From: a virus
Lineage: Duplodnaviria; Heunggongvirae; Uroviricota; Caudoviricetes
DNA length: 7,947 nt
IMG/VR virus record: IMGVR_UViG_2713896907_000004
Coordinates: 1 to 7,947 of that record
Strand: one strand, 5' to 3'
The notes below the pieces were generated by a model, which saw only the letters and a list, made by a program, of their open reading frames with translations, searched no databases and was not told where the DNA came from. This document shows, piece after piece, positions 1 through 7,947 of this stretch; positions within the stretch are counted from its first letter, which is position 1; each line of letters starts with the position of its first letter. A program made the translations under genes and the position numbers.

Positions 1-230
1 CACGGCCTGATATTGCTGTACGGTGGGTTATTCCAGATTGCACCGTGGCTTACCCACTCAGAATTGAGCGCGTCGTCGGCCTCAGTTAGCCAGTGAGCGC
101 ACAGAGCATTTTTGTCGCTCGCAGCTGAATCCAGCCAGAATCCAAACTCAATATCCAGCGCATCAAAAAGCCAGAGCGGCGTTTGCCAGCAGTCCTTGTC
201 GTGTGATGGCGTATTTGATTTGATAGTCAT
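1..230 (-). CDS. dam: Phage DNA N-6-adenine methyltransferase (Dam family), N-terminal part; gene runs off the window start
   Basis: Minus-strand ORF starting at ATG 230, overlapping the ninB TGA stop (ATGA junction). Hand translation: MTIKSNTPSHDKDCWQTPLWLFDALDIEFGFWLDSAASDKNALCAHWLTEADDALNSEWVSHGAIWNNPPYSNIRP, no stop before position 1. NPPY catalytic tetrapeptide and overall N-terminus resemble phage Dam methyltransferases (recalled, not searched). Confidence 0.7.
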   Translation of the reverse strand, partial: MTIKSNTPSHDKDCWQTPLWLFDALDIEFGFWLDSAASDKNALCAHWLTEADDALNSEWVSHGAIWNNPPYSNIRP

Positions 231-673
231 GCAGCCCTACCTTTTCGTTGTGACCATTCATACTCTCGCCAGGAGTCATCACTCCACCGCACGTTGCGCT
301 CTGAGCCGAACCAGAACATGATTTCGATAAGCTCAGTCATGCTGGCCTTCCGCATTTTGCTGGTACGCACGCCAAGCATGGCAACGCCACCGTCGATACC
401 AGGCACACTTCGTTGCTCCAGTTTTTTGGTCTTAAGCCACAGGGCAGTGAACAGGTCTTTCCAGTCTTCCGGCGCCAGCCGTTGACCATGCCATAGCACC
501 TGACGCGAAACATCGTTCAGCATCGGCCACATACGGTCATTCTGCGCTTTGCTGCGCTTGGGTTCTTTAACGTGGACTTCGTGGGGTGACTTGTCGTCGA
601 TGGGTAGTGAGAGAATGGCGTCTATGGCGTTATTTCTGATTGCTTCGTTGCGAAGCAGAAAGGTTTGCTTCAT
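227..673 (-). CDS. ninB: NinB-like recombination protein (lambda NinB/Orf family)
   Basis: Part of track ORF 227..775(-). Start placed at internal Met 35 (ATG at 673), preceded by GGAG. Product MKQTFLLRNEAI...WHGQRLAPEDWKDLFTALW...RNVRWSDDSWREYEWSQRKGRAA recalls lambda NinB in length and in the DVSRQV.WHG and WSD motifs. Confidence 0.85.
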   Translation of the reverse strand: MKQTFLLRNEAIRNNAIDAILSLPIDDKSPHEVHVKEPKRSKAQNDRMWPMLNDVSRQVLWHGQRLAPEDWKDLFTALWLKTKKLEQRSVPGIDGGVAMLGVRTSKMRKASMTELIEIMFWFGSERNVRWSDDSWREYEWSQRKGRAA

Positions 674-866
674 CTCCTGCTCTCCGGTTCCATTTTTCAG
701 CCGCCGCAGCAACTGATGGTGCCCATGCCCCCCTGGCTTCACAGAGGTCACATTCTGCATAGCCCCACACATCAATATTTATTCCGGCCTCACCCCACAG
801 ACGACCATTACCGCCGCAAAACGGACATTCTTTTAGCTTTGGCTGGGTTAATGATAGGTCGCTCAT
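630..866 (-). CDS. lar: Lar-family restriction alleviation protein (zinc-ribbon CPFCGG type)
   Basis: Internal start of track ORF 630..1073(-) at Met 70 (ATG at 866), preceded by AAGGAG at about 5 nt. Product MSDLSLTQPKLKECPFCGGNGRLW...ECDLCEARGAWAPSVAAAAEKWNRRAGDE has the CPFCGG ... C..C ... AxxxWNRR pattern of the Lar family. 3' end overlaps the ninB start by 44 nt in another frame. Confidence 0.7.
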   Translation of the reverse strand: MSDLSLTQPKLKECPFCGGNGRLWGEAGINIDVWGYAECDLCEARGAWAPSVAAAAEKWNRRAGDEANLSASQRSNQK

Positions 867-876
867 GCTCACTCCT

Positions 877-1092
877 TCACTTAAAATCCAGACTCCGGAT
901 AATTCTGTTGCGCTGAAACTCATTGTTGAGTTTGAACAACCGTCGAAGAACACGGTCACGCGGATAGCGTCGTGCGGCAGGTGAATGCTCATACAACTCA
1001 TCAAGCGGCAAACTTGACGATGAACGATACCGATACCAACGCACCAACTCTTCACGAAAATTAGCCCTGACAAGCTCAGCTATCGTACTCAT
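877..1092 (-). CDS. Hypothetical Arg-rich small protein (71 aa), first gene after the tR2-like terminator
   Basis: Track ORF 877..1092(-). GGAGGA about 8 nt upstream of the ATG at 1092. Its TGA stop lies inside the lar RBS. No recognisable family. Confidence 0.55.
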   Translation of the reverse strand: MSTIAELVRANFREELVRWYRYRSSSSLPLDELYEHSPAARRYPRDRVLRRLFKLNNEFQRNRIIRSLDFK

Positions 1093-1120
1093 TTCTTAAA
1101 TCCTCCAATTACTCTCCCCC

Positions 1121-1152
1121 AAATAAAAAGGCCTGCGATTACCAGCAGGCCT
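1121..1152 (-). terminator. Rho-independent terminator after the helicase gene (tR2-equivalent position)
   Basis: Minus-strand RNA reads AGGCCUGC-ugguaauc-GCAGGCCU followed by UUUUAUUU. Perfect 8-bp GC-rich stem (1129-1136 / 1145-1152) with the T-tract at 1121-1128. Sits about 28 nt downstream of the helicase stop. Confidence 0.65.
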
Positions 1153-1180
1153 GTTATTAGCTCAGTGATGTAGATGGTCA

Positions 1181-2617
1181 TCAGAATCCTCCTTTCTTCT
1201 TGGACTGCGGTTCCTCGCGTTCACGGCGGCGCATTTCAGCAGACTGTTGGTCTGTGTCATAAATAGCGCCATTTGCCTGTATGCAATACACCGTGCCGGT
1301 ATTGCCATGACGATTGAGGCGAAGGATTAGTTCGGTTTCACCAGGAGGAACGCTGTCATCAAAAGCACCTTCACGATGGATCCCCACCCAATAATCGCAA
1401 TCCTGTTCAATCTGCCCTGTATCTCGTGAGTCACTTGGTAATGGGCGTTTATTGGTTCGGCTTTCCAGTGCGCGGTTAAGCTGTGTCAGAAGCACAACAA
1501 CGCAATCAAGCTCTTTGGCAAGGTTCTTCAGTCCTTTGGTGATCATGCCGTAAGCAAGGTCGTTGCGATCGGCCTTTTCAGCGGTCATTAGTGTCAGGTA
1601 ATCGACCAGAATCATGCCAACACATCCTTTTTCTCGCTTGATTCGACGGCTTTCGCTGACGATTTGAGCCAGAGATAATCCCGGCGTGTCGTCGATGTAA
1701 AGCAGGTCGATTTCACTCAAGCGATTGGCTGTCTCGATCGCCCTGTTGAAGTCACCATCGTAATCACCCTGATAGCCGTCATCAGCGTCATTTGTCGCCG
1801 GAAGGTAAAAAATATTCGGGTTCACACCTGACTTCTGCCCTACCAGTTTTTCCAGTATCTGGTCACCTGGCATTTCAAGGCTGAACATCAGAGCGGGCTT
1901 TTTCTCATGCACTGCGCAGTTGATTGCCATCTGGCTGTATAGCGTCGTTTTCCCCATCTTAGGGCGAGCGCCAATGACAAACAGAGAGCCTTTCACCAGA
2001 CCTTTCGGTGACAGCATCCTGTCCAGCGATGGGATCCCTGTGCTCATTCCTCGTTGTTCGCCTGACGGGTCAAATCGCTTCTCAAGGTCGCTAACCCAGT
2101 CTTCCATGACCTCACCAAATGAGCGAAGGCCGCGACGCGATCCGGTTTTTGCATGGTCTGTCAGTTGCGTGAAAATCGACTGAATAGCTTCGTACTTCTG
2201 CGTTGCAGTCATTCCGTTGCGGGAATAGAGCAATTCCGTCGCTTCAGTCATGCGGTTGATGGCGTAGCGTTCCATTGCGGTTTCGCGAACCTGCATTGCA
2301 TAAGCAACGATGTTTGCTGCGCTTGGCGTGTTCTTTGCGATCTCAGCGATATAAGCAAAACCGCCAACAGACGCCGTTAACGATTTACGCTCCAGTTCAT
2401 CGAAAAGCGTCAGGCCATCTACTGGCTTTTGCTCACGGTGCATTCTGGTTATTTCTTCGAAAATGATTTTGTGTGGCCGGCTGTAAAATGAATCAGGCTT
2501 CAGCATCGCCAGAACCTTCTGGACGCGCTCACTGCTGTCATCATCCAGAAGCAATCCACCAATCACCGCCTGCTCTGCCTCGATGCTATGGGGCGGCGCA
2601 TAAAAATTATCGGTCAT
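1181..2617 (-). CDS. dnaB: DnaB-family replicative DNA helicase (phage-encoded, P22 gene 12-like)
   Basis: Track ORF 1181..2632(-). Start chosen at ATG 2617 ([25 protein letters not shown], preceded by GAGGGTG); the track Met at 2632 is the alternative. Classic DnaB N-terminus and Walker A GARPKMGKTT. Start overlaps the upstream gene's stop (ATGACCGATAA). Confidence 0.9.
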   Translation of the reverse strand: MTDNFYAPPHSIEAEQAVIGGLLLDDDSSERVQKVLAMLKPDSFYSRPHKIIFEEITRMHREQKPVDGLTLFDELERKSLTASVGGFAYIAEIAKNTPSAANIVAYAMQVRETAMERYAINRMTEATELLYSRNGMTATQKYEAIQSIFTQLTDHAKTGSRRGLRSFGEVMEDWVSDLEKRFDPSGEQRGMSTGIPSLDRMLSPKGLVKGSLFVIGARPKMGKTTLYSQMAINCAVHEKKPALMFSLEMPGDQILEKLVGQKSGVNPNIFYLPATNDADDGYQGDYDGDFNRAIETANRLSEIDLLYIDDTPGLSLAQIVSESRRIKREKGCVGMILVDYLTLMTAEKADRNDLAYGMITKGLKNLAKELDCVVVLLTQLNRALESRTNKRPLPSDSRDTGQIEQDCDYWVGIHREGAFDDSVPPGETELILRLNRHGNTGTVYCIQANGAIYDTDQQSAEMRRREREEPQSKKKGGF

Positions 2618-3506
2618 CGTGTTCACCCTCACGAACTTTCAGGTAGGTATTGTCGTTAAGCAGGAAATCAAATCCCTTTTTGTGCCAGACGGTTCCGCGC
2701 TGATGGTTTGGGCGCTCTTCGAACATCCATCGGCAATTTTCGCCTACGTAGCTCAAATAATTTCTCCAGTCCTGCATCGTGAACCCATGCCCGTCAAGCT
2801 GGCGGGTTATCACTCCGGCTTTGCGCCAGAACGTTCGGATCTGGTTTTTACGCTTGTCATTCAGTGCGCGGATTCTTGGCGCTTCAGGAAGGATTTCGTG
2901 GTAAGCATCGACAACATCCTGACAGCTGACGGGAGGTTTTTTCTTGTCAGACTTTTTGTCTGCTGTGGCACTCTCTAATACGTCAGTATTAGAGATAATA
3001 TTATTATATTCTTTATCTGTGGTAATTTGCTGGTAATCTGCTGGTACAGTATTGCTTACAGGCATTGGTATTGCTGGCTTTGAGGTGGTAATTTGCTGGT
3101 AATCTGCTGGTACAAAATTTGACTGATAATCGTCATATTTCTCTACCGAGAAAACTGAGAATTTACCGTGTGAAACCCAGTCAATCATGCCGAGTTTTTT
3201 GAACTTTCTAAGCAGGTACTGAACGCGATCTGGTTTGAGTCCTGTTTCAAACGCCAGAGAGTTTCTACCGCCAAGTAGCTTCCCTCTGCCTACCAGAATT
3301 TCTCCTGCGTCAGTCATTACATACTCAGGCGTATGCTTTGCTTTGAGGATTAAGTGAACCCACAGATGCGCTGCTTCTGCGTCCTTGTAAAACGGCACAT
3401 CCATAATTTTACGGTGCAGCAAGGCATACCCCTTACCGCTGCTTTGATGCGGTTGTTGTAGCCTTCTGGCCTCTCTGGCTTCGGCTAGATTAGATATGTT
3501 ACTCAT
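2607..3506 (-). CDS. Replication initiation protein (lambda O / P22 gp18 analogue)
   Basis: Track ORF 2607..3506(-). AAGGAG 7 nt upstream of the ATG at 3506. N-terminal winged-helix-like region, a central linker carrying the duplicated peptide [10 protein letters not shown], and a C-terminus resembling the conserved phage replication-protein C-terminal domain. Sits immediately upstream of the helicase. Confidence 0.8.
2972..3113. other. Putative origin of replication inside the initiator gene: AT-rich palindrome plus iteron-like direct repeats
   Basis: Two identical 29-bp direct repeats (3019-3047 and 3085-3113, gtggtaatttgctggtaatctgctggtac), each with GCTGGTAAT sub-repeats at about 11-bp spacing. 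Adjacent AT-rich stretch 2972-3016 holds a perfect 10-bp inverted repeat, tctctaatac-gtca-gtattagaga (2972-2995). Layout matches lambda ori inside O. Confidence 0.5.
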
Positions 3507-3645
3507 GACCTTTCTCCTTCTGCATCAGCTTCACTTTTTCCAACTCAGCCCGGAATCGACAAGGCTGCTTGAAGCTGGACAGGAAGCGATCACGTAGTAT
3601 GTGTTTGTGAATTTTGTCCTGGTAAGGACTGAGTTGTTTTGTCAT
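3499..3645 (-). CDS. Small hypothetical protein (48 aa) between cII and the initiator gene
   Basis: Not in the supplied track (too short). Hand translation from ATG 3645: [53 protein letters not shown] 7 nt upstream. Stop overlaps the initiator start (ATGAGTAA). Confidence 0.4.
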
Positions 3646-3654
3646 AATGACTCC

Positions 3655-3731
3655 TGTGGATTGATCCAGTAATTACCTCAGAACTCCATCTGGATTTGTT
3701 CAGAACGCTCGGTTGCCGCCGGGCGTTTTTT
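3655..3731 (+). ncRNA. oop: oop-like antisense RNA candidate (about 77 nt, antisense to the cII 3' end)
   Basis: Plus-strand extended -10 TGtCATAAT at 3640-3648 in the cII/initiator intergenic region, with a strong intrinsic terminator about 77 nt downstream inside the cII 3' end. Geometry as for lambda OOP. Start site is inferred, not observed. Confidence 0.4.
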
Positions 3732-3974
3732 ATTGGTTAGTCCATCAAGCGCATACTTAAAAGCCCTGCTAATCGGACTGATGTCTGATGCCATTCCAAA
3801 AGCACACAGAACCGAAGCAATAAATCTCCAGTCCGTTCTGCTTATCTTCGATTCATGACAGCCAATCATCTTTGCCAGACCGCGCTGGGTAAGCGTTGAC
3901 AGGTTGATAAGTAAATCTGTTTCTGCGCGATCAACGTCGCGCTGTGATAGTTTGCTGTAACTTGTTTGTTCCAT
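3678..3974 (-). CDS. cII: CII transcriptional activator (lambda CII family)
   Basis: Track ORF 3678..3974(-), 98 aa. C-terminal LTNKKRPAATERSEQIQMEF matches the lambda CII C-terminus as recalled. HTH-like ESKISRTDWRF in the middle. Sits between cro and the replication genes. Confidence 0.9.
   Translation of the reverse strand: MEQTSYSKLSQRDVDRAETDLLINLSTLTQRGLAKMIGCHESKISRTDWRFIASVLCAFGMASDISPISRAFKYALDGLTNKKRPAATERSEQIQMEF
3704..3731 (+). terminator. Rho-independent terminator on the strand antisense to cII
   Basis: Stem cgctcgg (3706-3712) / ccgggcg (3719-3725) with one G-U pair, 6-nt loop, extendable by two A-T pairs, followed by TTTTTTATT. Confidence 0.6.
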
Positions 3975-3984
3975 TTCTTACTAT
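3952..3984 (+). promoter_or_regulatory. PRE-like CII-dependent promoter candidate (TTGC-N6-TTGT at the cII start)
   Basis: Plus strand TTGC (3952-3955) - tgtaac - TTGT (3962-3965) overlapping the cII start region, with TACTAT at 3979-3984. Resembles lambda PRE TTGC-N6-TTGC and would point through cro antisense toward cI. Confidence 0.3.
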
Positions 3985-4008
3985 TTCCATAGTTAAATAA
4001 TCACTAAT

Positions 4009-4026
4009 ACTCATCTTTCGATGAGT
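4009..4026 (-). terminator. tR1-position hairpin between nutR and cII
   Basis: Minus-strand RNA ACUCAUC-GAAA-GAUGAGU, a perfect 7-bp stem with GAAA tetraloop, followed by an AU-rich tail AUUAGUGAUUAUUU. Weak intrinsic terminator or processing site. Confidence 0.35.
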
Positions 4027-4038
4027 GCTTAATTAGTT

Positions 4039-4073
4039 ACCGCGTTGTCGGCGGTGCAGATTGATAAAGAGCG
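4039..4073 (-). promoter_or_regulatory. nutR: boxA plus P22-type boxB
   Basis: Minus strand just downstream of the cro stop: boxA-like CGCTCTTTA (plus 4065-4073), then boxB hairpin ACCGCCGACAACGCGGU (plus 4039-4055). Matches the P22 nutR boxB as recalled. Confidence 0.6.
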
Positions 4074-4080
4074 ATGTTAC

Positions 4081-4308
4081 TTATGCAGCCAGAAGGTTCT
4101 TTTTGCTTATTTCAAGCATTTCGCTTGCTTGATATTTGCCACCAGAAATCTCTTCGATTTTTGATGCATATTTCGTTTTCCCAAAAAACTCAGTCTTAGG
4201 GAGGAAGCCGTTTTTAAGCCACTTATAGACAGCCCTTTCGCTAACTCCACAAGCCTTCGCAACTTCAGGGATGCCGACACCTTTAATCGGCTCATCAAGA
4301 TTTTGCAT
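4081..4308 (-). CDS. cro: Cro-like HTH regulator (first gene of the PR operon)
   Basis: Track ORF 4081..4341(-). Start chosen at internal ATG 4308 (MQNLDEPIKGVGIPEVAKACGVSERAVYKWLKNGFLP...), which has AAAAAGGG 8 nt upstream. The track ATG at 4341 falls inside the predicted PR -10. HTH motif present; divergent from cI. Confidence 0.7.
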   Translation of the reverse strand: MQNLDEPIKGVGIPEVAKACGVSERAVYKWLKNGFLPKTEFFGKTKYASKIEEISGGKYQASEMLEISKKNLLAA

Positions 4309-4320
4309 AGGAATACCCTT

Positions 4321-4393
4321 TTTCGTACTTTCAGTACGCATTATGATTGAACTGAAAGTTTTTGCAAGTGCTTTAGTATCGTACTCATGGTTC
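4321..4393. promoter_or_regulatory. OR-like operator/promoter region (PR leftward, PRM rightward)
   Basis: Minus-strand PR: -35 TTGCAA (plus 4362-4367), 16-bp spacer, -10 CATAAT (plus 4340-4345). Operator-like sites: cgtACTttcAGTacg palindrome (4324-4338), gaACTgaaAGTt (4349-4360), weaker taTCGTACtc (4377-4386). Possible PRM -10 TAGTAT (4374-4379) ends 7 nt before the cI ATG, which lacks a Shine-Dalgarno. Confidence 0.5.
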
Positions 4394-5094
4394 AGAATGA
4401 AAAAGTGCGCAAAGAATTCGCCCAGCGGCTAGCGCAAGCCTGTAAAGAAGCTGGTCTTGATGAACATGGTAGGGGGATGGCCATAGCCCGTGCCCTTTCT
4501 CTTTCGTCCAAAGGCGTTAGCAAATGGTTTAATGCTGAGTCTTTACCGCGTCAGGAAAAAATGAATGCGCTTGCGAAATTTCTAAACGTTGATGTTGTTT
4601 GGCTTCAGCACGGCACTTCGTTAAATGGAGCGAATGATGAAGATACTCTTTCATTTGTTGGCAAATTAAAAAAAGGGTTAGTGCGCGTGGTTGGTGAGGC
4701 AATTCTTGGTGTTGATGGTGCCATCGAGATGACCGAAGAGCGCGATGGGTGGCTCAAGATTTATAGCGATGATCCAGATGCCTTTGGTCTTCGTGTGAAA
4801 GGAGACAGCATGTGGCCCAGAATAAAATCAGGAGAATATGTACTCATTGAGCCTAACACCAAAGTATTCCCGGGTGATGAGGTGTTTGTCAGAACCGTTG
4901 AAGGACACAACATGATTAAGGTTCTTGGCTATGACAGAGATGGAGAATACCAATTTACAAGCATTAACCAGGACCACAGGCCTATAACGTTGCCTTATCA
5001 TCAAGTAGCAAAGGTGGAGTATGTGGCTGGTATTCTGAAGCAATCTCGTCATCTGGATGACATCGAGGCAAGGGAGTGGCTGAAAAATTCGTGA
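4387..5094 (+). CDS. cI: CI-like prophage repressor (N-terminal HTH, C-terminal S24 LexA-like peptidase)
   Basis: Track ORF 4387..5094(+), 235 aa. HTH near the N-terminus (GMAIARALSLSSKGVSKWFN). C-terminal GDSMWP serine motif and downstream Lys (NMIKVLG) typical of the S24 autocleavage domain. Divergent from cro with the operator region between. Confidence 0.9.
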   Translation: MVQNEKVRKEFAQRLAQACKEAGLDEHGRGMAIARALSLSSKGVSKWFNAESLPRQEKMNALAKFLNVDVVWLQHGTSLNGANDEDTLSFVGKLKKGLVRVVGEAILGVDGAIEMTEERDGWLKIYSDDPDAFGLRVKGDSMWPRIKSGEYVLIEPNTKVFPGDEVFVRTVEGHNMIKVLGYDRDGEYQFTSINQDHRPITLPYHQVAKVEYVAGILKQSRHLDDIEAREWLKNS

Positions 5095-5170
5095 CTTCAT
5101 CGTCACATAGCTGGTAACCAGTGGCCTGAAGAGACGTTTGGGTGATAGGAATGGATGTTAAGGATTAAGA

Positions 5171-6217
5171 ATGTCAGCGATTGATCAACCTGCGCAATAT
5201 GTTATCAAGTCAGAAGACGACTTTGTATCTTTTGTAACAGAAATGCTCGGAAGGAAGGATATCGACTCAAGCGACTTCACATTCCCTAGCGTAGTTTTCA
5301 GTGGATGGCCAAAGATCAATATTAATGTAAAAGGCGATCCAAATAGATATAATTCTTCATTGACTGCGTCAATGCTTTTTGGTATGGCAGAGCTTACGCA
5401 TGAAATACAAAAAGCATTTACGGTAGTCAGTCACAGCACTCATAATCGGCAGAAGCTAAAAGATGCAGAGAAAGGTTTGCTGGATATTGTCTACCGAATA
5501 AGCGAAGGCTCAAGCCAAGCGGATGGTGACTCAGATCCGATTGTAAACGGAGTGGTGACAGTGTTAACTCAAGCGATAGGCAAAATGACAGGAAGGCAAG
5601 CACTATGCGCCGTCGCCGCTATCGTCTTAGCTGCCAGCACGGTAGGCTATAAGTGGATCAATGAGTACTACGAAACACAGCGACATGACCAAGATTCTCA
5701 GGTGCAATTGGTGGAAAAAAGCACCAAAGCGGTAAACGAAGCACAAGACAATGTGCTCAAGTTGTTGATTAGCGGTCAAACAAACATTAGCAGAGAGGTT
5801 CTGGCTCACGGCGAGGATGGTAAAAGCAAGTTGCTTAAAAAGCTTGCTCAAGACTCGTCAGTTGAGAAGGTAACAATTGGTCAGAGAGTGGTAAATAGAG
5901 AACAGTTGAATACCTTAAACCAAAGGCAATCAATTGATCGAAAAAAGGAAACCAGAAGAGATAACTTTTATGTCACGGGCGTTCGTCGCTCGGGAGAAAC
6001 AAATCAGGACATAAATATTGACGTCACAAGGGTTTCAAATGGTGAATCTTTCACCATAAAAACCTCAGCCGACATAACATCTACTGATGAGCTTCTTGAG
6101 TTTTTGAATGCTGTAGCCAAAGAATCAACTGTTGAAATTTCATACCTAGAGGTTGTAGAAAATGGACACATTTCAACAGGACAATTGATAAATATATTCC
6201 CCAGCGAACCAGAGTGA
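5171..6217 (+). CDS. Hypothetical membrane protein (348 aa) in the rexAB-equivalent slot; candidate exclusion/defence moron
   Basis: Track ORF 5171..6217(+). AAGGA 6 nt upstream of the ATG. Same strand as cI, 76 bp downstream, with no terminator between. Visibly AT-richer than neighbours. One central hydrophobic segment (ALCAVAAIVLAASTVGY) and a charged Q/K/E-rich C-terminal half. No family recognised. Terminator follows. Confidence 0.8.
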   Translation: MSAIDQPAQYVIKSEDDFVSFVTEMLGRKDIDSSDFTFPSVVFSGWPKININVKGDPNRYNSSLTASMLFGMAELTHEIQKAFTVVSHSTHNRQKLKDAEKGLLDIVYRISEGSSQADGDSDPIVNGVVTVLTQAIGKMTGRQALCAVAAIVLAASTVGYKWINEYYETQRHDQDSQVQLVEKSTKAVNEAQDNVLKLLISGQTNISREVLAHGEDGKSKLLKKLAQDSSVEKVTIGQRVVNREQLNTLNQRQSIDRKKETRRDNFYVTGVRRSGETNQDINIDVTRVSNGESFTIKTSADITSTDELLEFLNAVAKESTVEISYLEVVENGHISTGQLINIFPSEPE

Positions 6218-6225
6218 TGCACTCC

Positions 6226-6254
6226 AAACCCGGCCTCAGCGCCGGGTTTTCTTT
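6226..6254 (+). terminator. Rho-independent terminator after the 348-aa gene
   Basis: Stem aaacccggc (6226-6234) / gccgggttt (6241-6249) with loop ctcagc, followed by TTTTCTTT (6247-6254). Begins 9 nt after the TGA stop. Confidence 0.7.
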
Positions 6255-6354
6255 GCCTCACGTTCGCCCTCCCATATTTAATAGCCGCAAATGTGGTAAA
6301 CCGCGAACCAACTCACCAGCAATACCCCCTCCAACTACAGACCAATCTGCAGCA

Positions 6355-6382
6355 TTTACAAAAATAAATTTCCTTATATATC
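6355..6382 (+). promoter_or_regulatory. Near-consensus sigma70-like promoter candidate in the AT-rich spacer upstream of OL
   Basis: -35 TTTACA (6355-6360), 16-bp spacer, -10 TATATA (6377-6382), plus strand, pointing toward nutL and N. Confidence 0.35.
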
Positions 6383-6418
6383 AAAATTATATCTCGCTGC
6401 ATTAATAAATCACAAAAA

Positions 6419-6464
6419 TTTCGTACCAATAGTTCTTGATAATATCGAACTATTGGTTCATTAT
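6419..6464 (+). promoter_or_regulatory. OL/PL-like region: operator motifs co-linear with OR plus a PL candidate
   Basis: TTTCGTACcaatAGTtC (6419-6435) and GAACTattgGTT (6447-6458) match the OR motifs TTTCGTACtttcAGTaC and GAACTgaaaGTT in the same order with near-identical spacing. 11-bp perfect inverted repeat accaatagttc / gaactattggt (6425-6435 / 6447-6457). PL candidate: -35 TTGATA (6436-6441), 17-bp spacer, -10 CATTAT (6459-6464). Confidence 0.45.
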
Positions 6465-6510
6465 TGTCACATCAGCAGGACGCTGGAAGCCAAACGGAAC
6501 AGATTGGCAG

Positions 6511-6544
6511 GCTCTTTAACTTCGATGGGGCGCTGACAAAGCGC
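6511..6544 (+). promoter_or_regulatory. nutL: boxA plus P22-type boxB
   Basis: boxA-like GCTCTTTAAC (6511-6520), then boxB hairpin GCGCTGACAAAGCGC (6530-6544), which is the P22 nutL boxB as recalled. Upstream of the N-like gene. Confidence 0.7.
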
Positions 6545-6572
6545 AAACAGATACCAAACGAGATGGGTTTGG

Positions 6573-6655
6573 CGGTGTGTAGCTCAGCAGGTAGAGCGGA
6601 TTCGTTGGCTAAGCCGTGGAATCGCGTCACCAGTTCAAGTATGGTCACACCACCA
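6573..6655 (+). other. tRNA-like element, non-canonical (degenerate tRNA remnant or structured N-leader RNA)
   Basis: Strong D-arm signature TA-GCTC-AGCAGGTA-GAGC. T-arm-like ACCAG-TTCAAGT-ATGGT with a G53/A61 mismatch. Acceptor cggtgtg/cacacca pairs 6 of 7. The anticodon stem gattc/gaatc encloses a 15-nt loop rather than 7. CCA follows at 6653-6655. Confidence 0.3.
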
Positions 6656-6681
6656 AAGCCATTTCACATGGAGAAAAGAAA

Positions 6682-6801
6682 ATGCTGGAAATTATCACCA
6701 ACCCAATTCTCGGTGGGGCAATCATCACTTTCGCAATCGGCATCGGATTCACTATCTGGTCTGAAGTAGATGACTGGATGTGGGAGCGCAAAAACAAATA
6801 A
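6682..6801 (+). CDS. Small hydrophobic peptide (39 aa, single predicted TM helix) in the N leader
   Basis: ATG at 6682 with GGAG 8 nt upstream. Product MLEIITNPILGGAIITFAIGIGFTIWSEVDDWMWERKNK: hydrophobic core then a charged Trp-rich tail. Inside the longer track ORF 6616..6801. Lies between nutL and N. Confidence 0.4.
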   Translation: MLEIITNPILGGAIITFAIGIGFTIWSEVDDWMWERKNK

Positions 6802-6841
6802 TAATCGACACACATTCATGTGTGTCTTCACGGAGGTCATC

Positions 6842-7150
6842 ATGACGGTTATCGTATACGGAAAATCAACATTTGCAGGAAATGCCAAAACTCGCCGTCA
6901 TGAGCGGCGCAGAAAGCTGGCTATCGAGCGTGATTCCATCTGCAACATCATCGATTCGATCTTCGGCACAGACAGTGAGGAAGCTGTTCAGGAAGAACCG
7001 AGAAAGCGTTTAAGCCTTTCTGAAAAAGCAATATCACTCGGCATCATTAGTAAATCAAATACAGATGCGAATGGCGGAAGCGTTTGCCTGCCCGAAGTTG
7101 CACTGTATGCTGCTGGTTACAGGTCAATGAAATCAATTACGGCGAGATAG
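6842..7150 (+). CDS. N: N-like transcription antiterminator (P22 gene 24 type, arginine-rich motif)
   Basis: Internal start of track ORF 6770..7150 at Met 25 (ATG 6842), with GGAGG 5 nt upstream. N-terminus MTVIVYGKSTFAGNAKTRRHERRRKLAIERD carries the arginine-rich boxB-binding motif of P22 N as recalled. Cognate boxB present in both nutL and nutR. Confidence 0.85.
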   Translation: MTVIVYGKSTFAGNAKTRRHERRRKLAIERDSICNIIDSIFGTDSEEAVQEEPRKRLSLSEKAISLGIISKSNTDANGGSVCLPEVALYAAGYRSMKSITAR

Positions 7151-7152
7151 AA

Positions 7153-7419
7153 ATGACTAGCAAACAAGTATCATATAAATGCTATTGCCCTTTATGTGGA
7201 AGAAAATTCAGCGCCAAGGCAGCATGGAAGCATATCAATGATTATCATCCAAAAGCATCAGAACGTGAGTTGATGATGATAAGAGATGTAAAACGAGAAA
7301 AAATTTCTTTCGCAACAAAGCCACTAAACGCCAACAAAAACGCAATATTGTATCAAATGCATCGTTCAAGTGGTCCAGATTATTCTGGAGGGCTTCCATC
7401 TCTTGGAAAGAAAAAATAA
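7153..7419 (+). CDS. Hypothetical small protein with a Cys2-His-type zinc-binding motif (89 aa)
   Basis: Internal start of track ORF 7084..7419 at Met 24 (ATG 7153), immediately after the N stop. Weak RBS (GAGATAGAA). Motif CYCPLCGRKF...HINDYH. No family recognised. Confidence 0.5.
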   Translation: MTSKQVSYKCYCPLCGRKFSAKAAWKHINDYHPKASERELMMIRDVKREKISFATKPLNANKNAILYQMHRSSGPDYSGGLPSLGKKK

Positions 7420-7552
7420 CCACGCTCATGCTGGTTTTTAATGACATAAATAACCCTATTTACTACCGCAAGCCACGCAGTGAAATGGGTGTGACTTGTG
7501 TTGGTCGCCAGAAAATGAAATTAGGCAGCAAACCACTTATTTGAGGTGATAT

Positions 7553-7639
7553 ATGGAAGAAGAATTTGAAGAGTTCGAAGAGCATCCGCAGGATGTGATG
7601 GAACAATACCAGGACTATCCGTATGACTACGACTATTGA
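7553..7639 (+). CDS. Very small acidic peptide (28 aa), possibly coupled to the next ORF
   Basis: ATG 7553 with GAGGTGA 4 nt upstream. Hand translation MEEEFEEFEEHPQDVMEQYQDYPYDYDY. Overlaps the start of the next ORF by 17 nt. Could be coding or only a coupling leader. Confidence 0.3.
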   Translation: MEEEFEEFEEHPQDVMEQYQDYPYDYDY

Positions 7640-7823
7640 TAAAAATCAATGGTGTGGACAATTCAAACGATGCAATGGATGCAAGCTGCAATCGGAATGC
7701 ATGGTTAAGCCTGAAGAAATGTTTCCTGTAATGGAAGATGGGAAATATGTCGATAAATGGGCAATACGAACTACGGCAATGATTGCCAGAGAACTTGGTA
7801 AACAGAAAAACAAGGCTGCCTGA
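7623..7823 (+). CDS. Hypothetical Cys-rich small protein (66 aa, CxxxxxCxxCxxxxxC)
   Basis: Track ORF 7623..7823(+). Start overlaps the preceding acidic ORF. Four Cys in CGQFKRCNGCKLQSEC suggest a zinc ribbon. Followed by a terminator. Confidence 0.5.
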   Translation: MTTTIDKNQWCGQFKRCNGCKLQSECMVKPEEMFPVMEDGKYVDKWAIRTTAMIARELGKQKNKAA

Positions 7824-7842
7824 TGGTGGCCTTTATTTTTGG
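7813..7842 (+). terminator. Rho-independent terminator after the N-downstream small genes
   Basis: Stem aggctgcc (7813-7820) / ggtggcct (7825-7832) with two G-U pairs, loop tgat (contains the TGA stop), followed by TTATTTTTGG. Confidence 0.5.
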
Positions 7843-7947
7843 CATAAACAACAGAATAAACACAGCACTGTGTATTCATTCCAACGAGTGAATACACGGA
7901 GCAATGTCGCTCGTAACCAAACAGGAGCCGACTTGTTCTGATTATTG

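Follow-up and report, generated by a model that had tools for sequence, protein, structure and literature searches.

The window analysed here, a stretch of 7,947 nucleotides from a tailed-phage record (IMGVR_UViG_2713896907_000004, positions 1–7,947), carries at its beginning, on the minus strand, a tight row of early genes directly behind the terminator that follows the helicase gene. In an earlier note, the co-location of these genes, among them those for a Lar-family restriction-alleviation protein and a Dam-family methyltransferase, was taken to suggest a counter-defence module expressed only upon N-mediated readthrough, with a small Arg-rich protein of 71 aa as a possible third component. 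The locus thus raises the question of whether these genes stand side by side as a functional unit or because of the way lambdoid genomes are built. Our analysis strongly favors the latter: positions 1–1181 very likely represent that part of a nin region which lies nearest to the promoter, in a Stx-type lambdoid prophage where gene adjacency is due to the mosaic but syntenic lambdoid order and not to a single anti-restriction unit.

Gene content and layout of the segment

On the minus strand, the order is DnaB-like helicase, tR2 terminator, DUF7301, Lar-like protein, NinB and Dam (partial), with the following features:

1181–2632, minus strand: DnaB-like replicative helicase, the gene in the P position (PF03796 E=3e-60, PF00772 E=6e-32, phrog_19 E=1e-137)
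1089–1181, minus strand: 30-codon ninA-like mini-ORF (MTIYITELITGLLVIAGLFIWGRVIGGFKK; phrog_5907 E=5e-17)
1118–1152, minus strand: intrinsic terminator, identical to lambda tR2 (terminator scan; stem-loop AGGCCTGC-TGGTAATC-GCAGGCCT at 1152–1129, followed by the U-tract TTTTTATTTGG)
877–1092, minus strand: DUF7301 protein, 71 aa (PF23975 E=4e-26, 91.4 bits versus a cut-off of 27; phrog_1785 E=2e-33)
630–866, minus strand: Lar-family zinc-ribbon protein, 78 aa (PF14354 E=3e-10, 40.6 bits versus a cut-off of 28.6; TIGR03655 59.2 bits versus 39.6; phrog_599 E=2e-37)
227–673, minus strand: NinB/Orf homologous-recombination mediator, 148 aa (PF05772 E=7e-48, 162 bits versus 23.8; phrog_72 E=3e-59)
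1–230, minus strand: phage N6-adenine (Dam) methyltransferase, first 76 codons (PF05869 E=1e-26, 94 bits versus 28; TIGR01712 123.9 bits versus a cut-off of 97)

The gene positions claimed earlier were all confirmed on the minus strand, as were the junctions: the TGA stop of the DUF7301 gene adjoins and partly runs into the Shine-Dalgarno sequence of lar (AAGGAG), the last 44 nt of lar (630–673) overlap ninB, and ninB and dam share an ATGA (227–230). The four tightly packed downstream genes would probably be translationally coupled. The interval between the helicase and DUF7301 genes is more than plain intergenic sequence and holds the 30-codon ninA ORF (1089–1181), which had been missed. All four family calls (DUF7301, Lar, NinB and Dam) lie above curated HMM cut-offs. 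The assignment of NinB holds over the full length of the profile (positions 1–131 of 131). That of Dam stands as a family call, with the catalytic motif NPPY at residues 68–71, but only the N-terminal 43% of the protein (76 of 175 codons) lies within the window; a 175-aa orthologue, which agrees at 75 of these 76 residues, is present in one of the compared loci (L001; L numbers denote compared loci throughout).

At the DNA level, the segment is 98.9% identical to the phages VT2-Sakai, Stx2 II and the PA-series Stx phages, in which the corresponding genes are annotated as DUF7301, Lar family, NinB and phage N-6-adenine-methyltransferase. The encoded proteins are 97–99% identical to those of VT2-Sakai and Stx2 II, with 70 of 71 residues shared by the DUF7301 protein and Stx2 II ORF C63, 76 of 78 by the Lar-like protein, 146 of 148 by NinB and 75 of 76 by the part of Dam (M.EcoVT2Dam) within the window. 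A match to the segment occurs in 2082 of 5426 complete E. coli genomes, that is, in more than one third, and every gene already bears a family name. The gene set is already known and has been catalogued as the ordinary start of the nin region of Shiga-toxin-type phages, and as a near-identical copy of a set found in well-studied phages the segment carries little weight as a discovery. In 80 IMG/VR loci the downstream genes almost invariably follow in the order DUF7301-Lar-NinB-Dam-NinE, with a variable upstream side, although this set comprises only copies with 99–100% identical DUF7301 and therefore serves for counts of architecture and not of diversity.

The tR2 terminator and the ninA mini-ORF

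The terminator, formerly described as tR2-like, turned out to be lambda tR2 itself, as both the hairpin and the U-tract are identical, and the same sequence has been published as the lambda tR2 terminator (10.1101/2022.08.30.505822). Its folding energy amounts to -16 to -18 kcal/mol (z = -2.3), and the hairpin at 1152–1129 is directly followed on its 3' side by TTTTTATTT. In phage Sf6 (L012) the element is annotated as 'terminator, homology to phage lambda; tR2', and the same hairpin and U-tract are located between ren and ninB in the lambda-type genome L011. The terminator resides inside the conserved lambdoid 'boundary sequence' at the junction of replication and nin genes, so that we are dealing with lambda tR2 within a known recombination boundary rather than with a mere resemblance.

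The helicase gene, the last replication gene upstream of the terminator, has its stop codon at 1181–1183. The ninA ORF overlaps this stop (TGATG) as well as the start of the DUF7301 gene (ATGA), and contains the terminator. Its first approximately 70 nt constitute the boundary sequence, and across 387 phage records, among them those of lambda, P22, L, Sf6 and HK75, its first 23 aa are 91–100% conserved; in phage L it is annotated as ninA, and in Sf6 it bears the labels 'similar to phage 21 NinA' and 'bsq6 boundary sequence'. The ORF is unbroken and coupled to both of its neighbors, so that ribosomes translating the hairpin could weaken termination, and it might be speculated that ninA encodes a real small membrane peptide whose translation tunes tR2. 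A GGAGG Shine-Dalgarno sequence serves the ORF, which is a member of a PHROG family and is coupled both to its downstream neighbor and to the upstream gene, be it the helicase, C61 or ren. In one variant, the first nine codons (MTIYITELI) are the same and are followed by a different hydrophobic peptide with the hairpin absent, and a distant DUF7301 locus (L106) has at this position an unrelated 29-codon ORF with its own terminator-like hairpin. However, the ORF is cut in 20 loci that still have the hairpin, either by a TGA stop (12 loci) or by a 1-nt loop deletion that shifts the frame and keeps the stem (8 loci), and in 13 loci the hairpin lies untranslated directly after the stop codon of an unrelated (HNH) gene. 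Moreover, ninA is conserved at the nucleotide level, as expected of a recombination boundary and terminator, and displays no synonymous variation that would show selection on the protein. Judged by the relatives compared, the conserved unit is the hairpin and not the mini-ORF, and we consider a peptide with a role in termination conceivable but doubtful.

Expression of the segment

As the start of a nin region, the segment most likely continues the rightward (pR) operon cro-cII-O-helicase as its delayed-early part. Transcription from pR would meet tR2 (1152–1118), and by analogy with lambda only polymerase modified by phage N at nutR should pass this terminator efficiently. The window holds a gene for N and two nut-like sites:

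6842–7150, plus strand: N antiterminator gene (PF25694 N_peptide E=1e-36; the match starts at residue 25 of the ORF 6770–7150)
6510–6544, plus strand: nutL-like site, found by sequence and pattern search (boxA-like GGCTCTTTA at 6510–6518, boxB GCGCTGACAAAGCGC at 6530–6544)
4040–4073, minus strand: nutR-like site between cro and cII (boxA CGCTCTTTA at 4073–4065, boxB hairpin core at 4054–4040 with GACAA in the loop)

The arginine-rich motif of N, GNAKTRRHERRRKLAIER, is of the P22 type, and the boxB of the nutL-like site equals that of phage P22. The nutR-like site, likewise located by sequence and pattern search, has a boxB predicted to form a 5-bp stem-loop, and by analogy with lambda and P22 4040–4073 is a putative nut site. 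Another nut-like candidate just upstream of tR2 (boxA-like 1260–1268, boxB-like 1215–1229) was rejected, as its boxA is within chance expectation and a convincing hairpin is lacking. The coding strand of positions 1–1400 yielded no sigma-70-like promoter. As N, nutL and nutR are present and this stretch shows no promoter-like site on the coding strand, it is plausible, by analogy with lambda, that the genes of the nin segment depend on N readthrough. A screen of lysogen cultures picked up the dam gene of phage Phi24B (PMC3342100), which leaves room for some N-independent expression or spontaneous induction. A single weak promoter-like match was observed on the plus strand (876–903). Rfam searches of the whole window at gathering thresholds, and of 6450–6700 at E up to 1, returned no RNA family, and ARAGORN likewise returned nothing.

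The DUF7301 protein and its neighbor NinB

Homology searches placed the 71-aa ORF in the Pfam family DUF7301, a genuine conserved small family. The protein is basic, with 14 Arg among its 71 residues and a pI of 10.8. In the family alignment the motif SSSLP..E....RP....YRRDRVL (Y(R/P)RDRVL) is kept across 41 sequences, and in close members the core YPRDRVLRRL is invariant. The AlphaFold2 model (pLDDT 88; helices 2–25, 30–35 and 44–69) predicts a basic helical hairpin. Foldseek searches with this model against PDB and BFVD gave nothing below E=4, and a profile search of PDB sequences gave no match. A function based on structure was therefore not assigned, since the model is confident but a helical hairpin is too generic. 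PADLOC and NCBIfam profiles did not match the protein, nor is DUF7301 mentioned in the literature searched.

Judging from its genomic contexts, DUF7301 appears to be a recurrent small early gene that temperate enterobacterial phages carry immediately behind their replication genes, often right ahead of ninB. A 60%-identical variant is followed by a NinB-like gene and then by Dam, with no Lar; in L100–L103 the DUF7301 gene adjoins NinB and Dam is missing; and other distant members occur in other early-region contexts. NinB/Orf is a single-stranded-DNA-binding recombination mediator, and DUF7301 might be hypothesized to be a small co-translated accessory of NinB/Orf in recombination, unrelated to defence. 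NinB (phrog_72) is the commonest immediate downstream neighbor of divergent DUF7301 genes, often with overlapping frames (by 8 nt in L003, 52 nt in L100 and 29 nt in L103 and L104). In L013, L101 and L102 it again comes next downstream, about 160 nt away in L101 and L102. Extra small genes are inserted upstream of DUF7301 and not between DUF7301 and ninB, the exceptions being Lar in the window and two ORFs in L097. On the other hand, the lambdoid gene order is so strongly syntenic that adjacency may lack functional meaning, lambda and many other NinB-bearing phages have no DUF7301, and NinB does not adjoin DUF7301 in L095, L105, L106 and L108. Immediate adjacency was found in about 4 of 12 distinct family members examined. 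As the link is suggestive but not universal, and is confounded by lambdoid synteny, we keep a NinB accessory only as an improbable alternative. A broader proposal is similarly improbable, namely that DUF7301 acts on a specific target as an early-phage effector, be it a novel anti-defence protein or a NinB/Orf partner, or that translation of ninA across the tR2 hairpin genuinely regulates the entry of polymerase into the nin region. DUF7301 may have a role related to defence, and together with the nin-region Lar-like protein it is common in prophages of pathogenic E. coli.

The Lar-like protein, Dam and the proposed anti-restriction module

The Lar-family call holds, with both PF14354 and TIGR03655 above their cut-offs, and the protein displays the four-cysteine motif CPFCG...CDLC (C14, C17, C39 and C42). 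A BLASTP comparison with Lar/RalR of the K-12 Rac prophage yielded 33% identity (E=2e-8), with both cysteine pairs and WN(K/R)R aligned. The RalR equivalog model (NF007260) gave 23.3 bits versus a cut-off of 113, and the protein is therefore not an RalR equivalog. A lar gene has been listed among the genes shared by Stx phages (PMC3430580). Only 119 phage records contain the variant seen in the window; every copy is at least 80% identical and directly adjoins ninB. Going by these matches, the variant is confined to one Stx-phage lineage, and the gene looks like a lineage-specific insertion ahead of ninB. In the records of 933W (EDL933-Stx) and Min27 the gene matches only in two pieces with 87% covered, and may be frameshifted there.

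A canonical restriction-alleviation gene is located elsewhere in the window:

7623–7823, plus strand: Ral, of the lambda type (PF11058 E=1e-47; phrog_1055 'restriction alleviation ral' E=3e-49)

This gene sits at its canonical place in the leftward (pL) operon, outside the cluster under study. Ral of lambda alleviates type I restriction and enhances modification. Lar has likewise been reported to do both (King and Murray 1995, as cited in PMC4041452). Judged by its homology with Rac Lar, the Lar-like protein probably alleviates type I (EcoKI-family) restriction, although its activity may differ, given no more than 33% identity and an RalR score well short of the cut-off. M.EcoVT2Dam has been reported to target GATC (PMC6602927), and given its near identity the orphan Dam encoded here presumably methylates GATC.

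Since homology supports the lar-like and dam-like genes and the 71-aa ORF proved to be conserved, the module proposal does not fall on the points which the earlier note had itself named against it. Under this proposal, DUF7301, Lar and Dam would constitute a module devoted to counter-defence, which N readthrough would turn on and of which DUF7301 would be the third component. It agrees with the confirmed family membership of Lar and identity of Dam, with the tight packing downstream of tR2, and with the nature of DUF7301, which is small, basic, phage-specific and early, as is typical of host-takeover and anti-defence proteins. In addition, a DNA methyltransferase is encoded within about 1.5 kb downstream of DUF7301 in unrelated contexts (MT-A70 in L095, phrog_757 in L099 and a C5-MTase in L108). 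The comparative data, however, speak against a single anti-restriction unit. All divergent DUF7301 contexts examined are without Lar, and those of L100–L103 and L105–L106 are without Dam. Dam follows directly after NinB in lambdoid phages without Lar (L011, L013, L002–L005 and L097), of which L011 lacks DUF7301 as well. The supposed module is interrupted by the recombination mediator NinB, its Lar gene is restricted to one lineage and perhaps frameshifted in two records, and the phage already has ral in the canonical place. DUF7301 itself has no PADLOC match, similar structure or literature link that would make it a third anti-defence component, and the whole arrangement is 97–99% identical to that of published Stx phages. 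A dedicated module thus appears quite unlikely. An obligatory pairing of DUF7301 with Lar, such as that of an antitoxin with its toxin, was rejected on account of the divergent members, all of which lack Lar. Current annotation describes Rac Lar as RalR, an endodeoxyribonuclease that serves as the toxin of a type I toxin-antitoxin pair (PMC4041452). Its alignment to the Lar-like protein invites the idea of a RalR-type DNase toxin whose antidote would be the immediately upstream DUF7301 or an antisense RNA, but such a pair is highly improbable in view of the equivalog score, the absence of Lar from every divergent DUF7301 context, the absence of any Rfam family in the window and the lack of a promoter-like site of the right polarity for an antitoxin RNA, save for the weak plus-strand match at 876–903.

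Comparison with known systems

The closest relatives of the nin-region start described here are VT2-Sakai and Stx2 converting phage II (NC_000902, NC_004914), which have the same four genes in the same order and with the same overlaps (ORFs C63–C66). They differ by two extra ORFs between helicase and DUF7301 that are absent from the window, C61 (89 aa) and C62 (92 aa), which flank the 70-nt tR2/ninA piece on its upstream and downstream side, respectively. In the window, as in some IMG/VR loci, helicase, ninA/tR2 and DUF7301 are directly joined; the directly joined layout is also found in phage Dewey and in L003, with a DUF7301 variant of 75 aa. The Dam of these phages, M.EcoVT2Dam (PF05869/TIGR01712), agrees with that of the window at 75 of 76 residues and shares NPPY.

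With lambda tR2, Sf6 bsq6 and ninA of P22 and L, the segment has in common an identical hairpin, the U-tract and the position between replication-region and nin genes. In lambda, ren lies upstream of tR2 and ninB comes next, whereas in the window a DnaB-type helicase lies upstream and DUF7301 and Lar precede ninB. The tail of ninA reads RVIGGFKK in the window and RGKS, RGKCG and others elsewhere.

Lar of the Rac prophage (RalR; K-12 b1348) shares with the Lar-like protein PF14354/TIGR03655, the four-cysteine zinc ribbon and the C-terminal WN(K/R)R. Rac lar is a leftward-arm gene that neighbors recET and is accompanied by the RalA sRNA, while the lar gene of the window belongs to the rightward nin operon and overlaps ninB. 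Lambda Ral is a member of a different family (PF11058) from Lar, and as its counterpart in the window is encoded separately, at 7623–7823 on the other strand, this phage carries both Ral and a Lar-like protein.

Organization of the gene cluster

The window is the immunity and replication region of a lambdoid prophage, in which the lambda 'rightward' operon lies on the minus strand.

Features of the region
4081-4341, minus strand, cro
3678-3974, minus strand, cII
minus strand, DUF2740 mini-gene
2607-3506, minus strand, O-like initiator
1181-2632, minus strand, DnaB-type helicase
1089-1181, minus strand, 30-codon ninA-like ORF (phrog_5907)
1152-1129, minus strand, terminator hairpin, followed by TTTTTATTT
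877-1092, minus strand, 71-aa ORF, DUF7301 (PF23975)
630-866, minus strand, 78-aa ORF, Lar family (PF14354, TIGR03655)
227-673, minus strand, 148-aa ORF, NinB/Orf (PF05772)
from 230, minus strand, Dam ORF, leaving the window after 76 codons (PF05869, TIGR01712)
4387-5094, plus strand, cI
5171-6217, plus strand, 348-aa gene without assigned function, between cI and N
6842-7150, plus strand, N (PF25694)
7623-7823, plus strand, ral (PF11058)

The 71-aa ORF ends in a TGA that abuts the AAGGAG Shine-Dalgarno sequence of the 78-aa ORF, the latter overlaps the 148-aa ORF by 44 nt, and the junction to Dam is an ATGA; this layout downstream of the helicase, junctions included, had been described accurately in an earlier note on this DNA. 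The lar-like, NinB and dam-like assignments made there all lie above curated thresholds: the Lar-family protein scores 40.6 bits against PF14354 (cut-off 28.6) and 59 against TIGR03655 (39.6), NinB matches PF05772 over its full length (E=7e-48), and the truncated Dam ORF, which contains an NPPY motif, matches PF05869 and the TIGR01712 equivalog model (124 versus 97). The Lar-like protein shares 33% identity with Lar/RalR of the K-12 Rac prophage (E=2e-8) and retains both CxxC pairs, but reaches only 23 bits against the RalR equivalog model (threshold 113); thus, it belongs to the same family but is no RalR orthologue.

The 71-aa ORF, regarded previously as uncharacterised, is conserved and belongs to a genuine protein family, DUF7301 (PF23975, 91 bits; cut-off 27). 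The protein contains 14 arginine residues (pI 10.8) and the conserved motif SSSLP..E....RP....Y(R/P)RDRVL, and its close relatives are mosaics of two N-terminal and two C-terminal variants around an invariant YPRDRVLRRL core. AlphaFold2 confidently predicts a helical hairpin (pLDDT 88; helices 2-25, 30-35 and 44-69), for which Foldseek returned no relatives among PDB and viral models. Similarly, PDB sequence profile searches, PADLOC and NCBIfam gave no match, and no mention of the family was found in the literature searched. The commonest neighbour of DUF7301 is NinB, frequently with overlapping frames, and it might therefore be speculated, if weakly, that the protein is linked to Orf-mediated recombination; however, lambdoid synteny suffices to explain this adjacency.

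The terminator and the ninA mini-ORF

The nin region here opens with lambda tR2 located inside its boundary sequence. The terminator, previously termed tR2-like, is in fact identical to lambda tR2 in hairpin and U-tract, matching exactly the sequence used in termination biochemistry (10.1101/2022.08.30.505822). It lies in a 70-nt piece (1112-1181) that is the conserved lambdoid 'boundary sequence', the first 23 codons of which are 91-100% conserved across 387 phage records, including lambda, P22, L, Sf6 and HK75. In the Sf6 record the piece is gene 45, 'similar to phage 21 NinA', also 'bsq6; boundary sequence', with a terminator marked there as 'homology to phage lambda; tR2'; phage L is annotated with ninA and a terminator, and in a lambda-type genome the piece resides between ren and ninB. 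The intact, hydrophobic 30-codon ORF across it, overlooked in the earlier note, overlaps the stop of the helicase gene as TGATG and the start of DUF7301 as ATGA and is probably translationally coupled on both sides.

Among the 90-odd loci surveyed for variation, 12 carry a TGA stop inside the mini-ORF, 8 have a 1-nt loop deletion which shifts the frame and leaves the stem intact, and in 13 an unrelated HNH gene has its stop codon immediately before the hairpin. This variation shows the hairpin to be the unit under selection. NinA may still be a real peptide, since nine loci preserve the first nine codons, followed by a different hydrophobic peptide and no hairpin. In a single distant DUF7301 context, comparison locus L106, an unrelated 29-codon mini-ORF (1312-1401) with its own terminator-like hairpin (AACCGCTTTTAAAGCGGTTTTTTTAT) sits directly upstream of DUF7301 with an ATGA overlap, a ninA/tR2 layout of different sequence.

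Predicted antitermination and the leftward arm

N (PF25694, E=1e-36) carries the P22-type arginine-rich motif GNAKTRRHERRRKLAIER. The nutL site is located at 6510-6544 (plus strand; boxB GCGCTGACAAAGCGC at 6530-6544) and nutR at 4040-4073 (minus strand), between cro and cII, with boxA CGCTCTTTA and a 5-bp stem-loop bearing GACAA. We take this nutL boxB and the N motif to be the phage P22 versions; their presence beside Stx-phage-like replication and nin genes clearly illustrates the mosaicism of lambdoid phages. As N and nut sites are present and a search of the coding strand from the terminator to dam gave no sigma-70-like promoter, it can reasonably be inferred from lambda biology that N-modified polymerase would read through tR2.

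Two small plus-strand genes flank N, one for a 39-aa hydrophobic peptide (6682-6801, phrog_7482) and one for an 88-111-aa protein (7084-7419; phrog_20899, E=4e-64) with weak C2H2/C2HC zinc-finger matches. Between nutL and N (about 6566-6660, plus strand), a tRNA-like stretch with D-arm-like GTAGCTCAGCAGGTAGAGC, T-loop-like GTTCAAGT and a 3' end in CACACCACCA may be a degenerate tRNA remnant; ARAGORN and Rfam made no call there. The 348-aa ORF occupies the rexAB-like moron slot between cI and N. Pfam, NCBIfam and PADLOC gave no match, phrog_6191 being the only one, and tblastn against 50,697 phage records found 9 that carry it, with relatives in phi458 (98.9%) and, at 23-34%, in the PhiR12 series, mEp332 and Pasteurella phage Pmp14. 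It is a candidate exclusion or defence gene expressed in the lysogen.

Is the cluster a counter-defence module?

The earlier note had proposed a dedicated anti-restriction cluster with DUF7301 as a possible third component. While the Lar and Dam gene calls stand, comparative evidence argues against a module of DUF7301, Lar and Dam, and this interpretation is only partly supported. Of the 80 IMG/VR loci that carry a near-identical DUF7301, nearly all read DUF7301-Lar-NinB-Dam-NinE in the downstream direction, which is linkage inside one lineage. The Lar-DUF7301 neighbourhood is confined to that lineage, and divergent DUF7301 contexts lack Lar: a 75-aa variant (60% identity; comparison loci L002-L005 and phage Dewey) is followed by a NinB-like gene (phrog_72) and Dam without Lar. 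Distant members (25-40% identity) came from a profile search that covered 1.84 billion representatives and gave just 44 matches. They lie immediately 5' of NinB, without Dam, in L100-L103, in other nin-region contexts in L097, L106 and L108, and in early regions that are non-lambdoid or unclassified in L095 and L105; none of these loci has Lar. Dam still follows NinB in a lambda-type phage without DUF7301 and Lar.

Just 119 phage records contain the Lar variant of the window; the copies share 80% identity or more, and each of them overlaps ninB. The Pfam domain of the protein stops at residue 63, the exact start of the 44-nt ninB overlap, consistent with a lineage-specific insertion 5' of ninB. 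In EDL933-Stx (933W; CP111102.1) and Min27 (NC_010237.1) the ORF is matched in two pieces (87% covered), which suggests a frameshift or indel, and the gene may thus be dispensable. For restriction alleviation the canonical gene is ral (PF11058, E=1e-47; phrog_1055), which lies on the other, leftward arm downstream of N, and the phage thus carries both ral and, in its nin region, a Lar-family gene.

Relation to Stx phages

A 1300-bp segment shares 98.9% identity with VT2-Sakai, Stx2 converting phage II and a large number of other Stx phages; of 5426 complete E. coli genomes, 2082 contain a match to it. PGAP names the genes in Stx phages 'DUF7301 family protein', 'Lar family restriction alleviation protein', 'recombination protein NinB' and 'phage N-6-adenine-methyltransferase'; identities to the Stx2 II proteins are 70/71, 76/78, 146/148 and 75/76, respectively. 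lar is among the genes common to Stx phages (PMC3430580), and the VT2-Sakai Dam is M.EcoVT2Dam, for which GATC methylation has been reported (PMC6602927). The sole structural difference is that Stx phages have two extra ORFs upstream of DUF7301 (C61, 89 aa, and C62, 92 aa), which flank the 100% identical 70-nt piece and are absent here. The locus is the ordinary opening of the nin region in an Stx-type lambdoid prophage, and this arrangement has been sequenced and annotated before.
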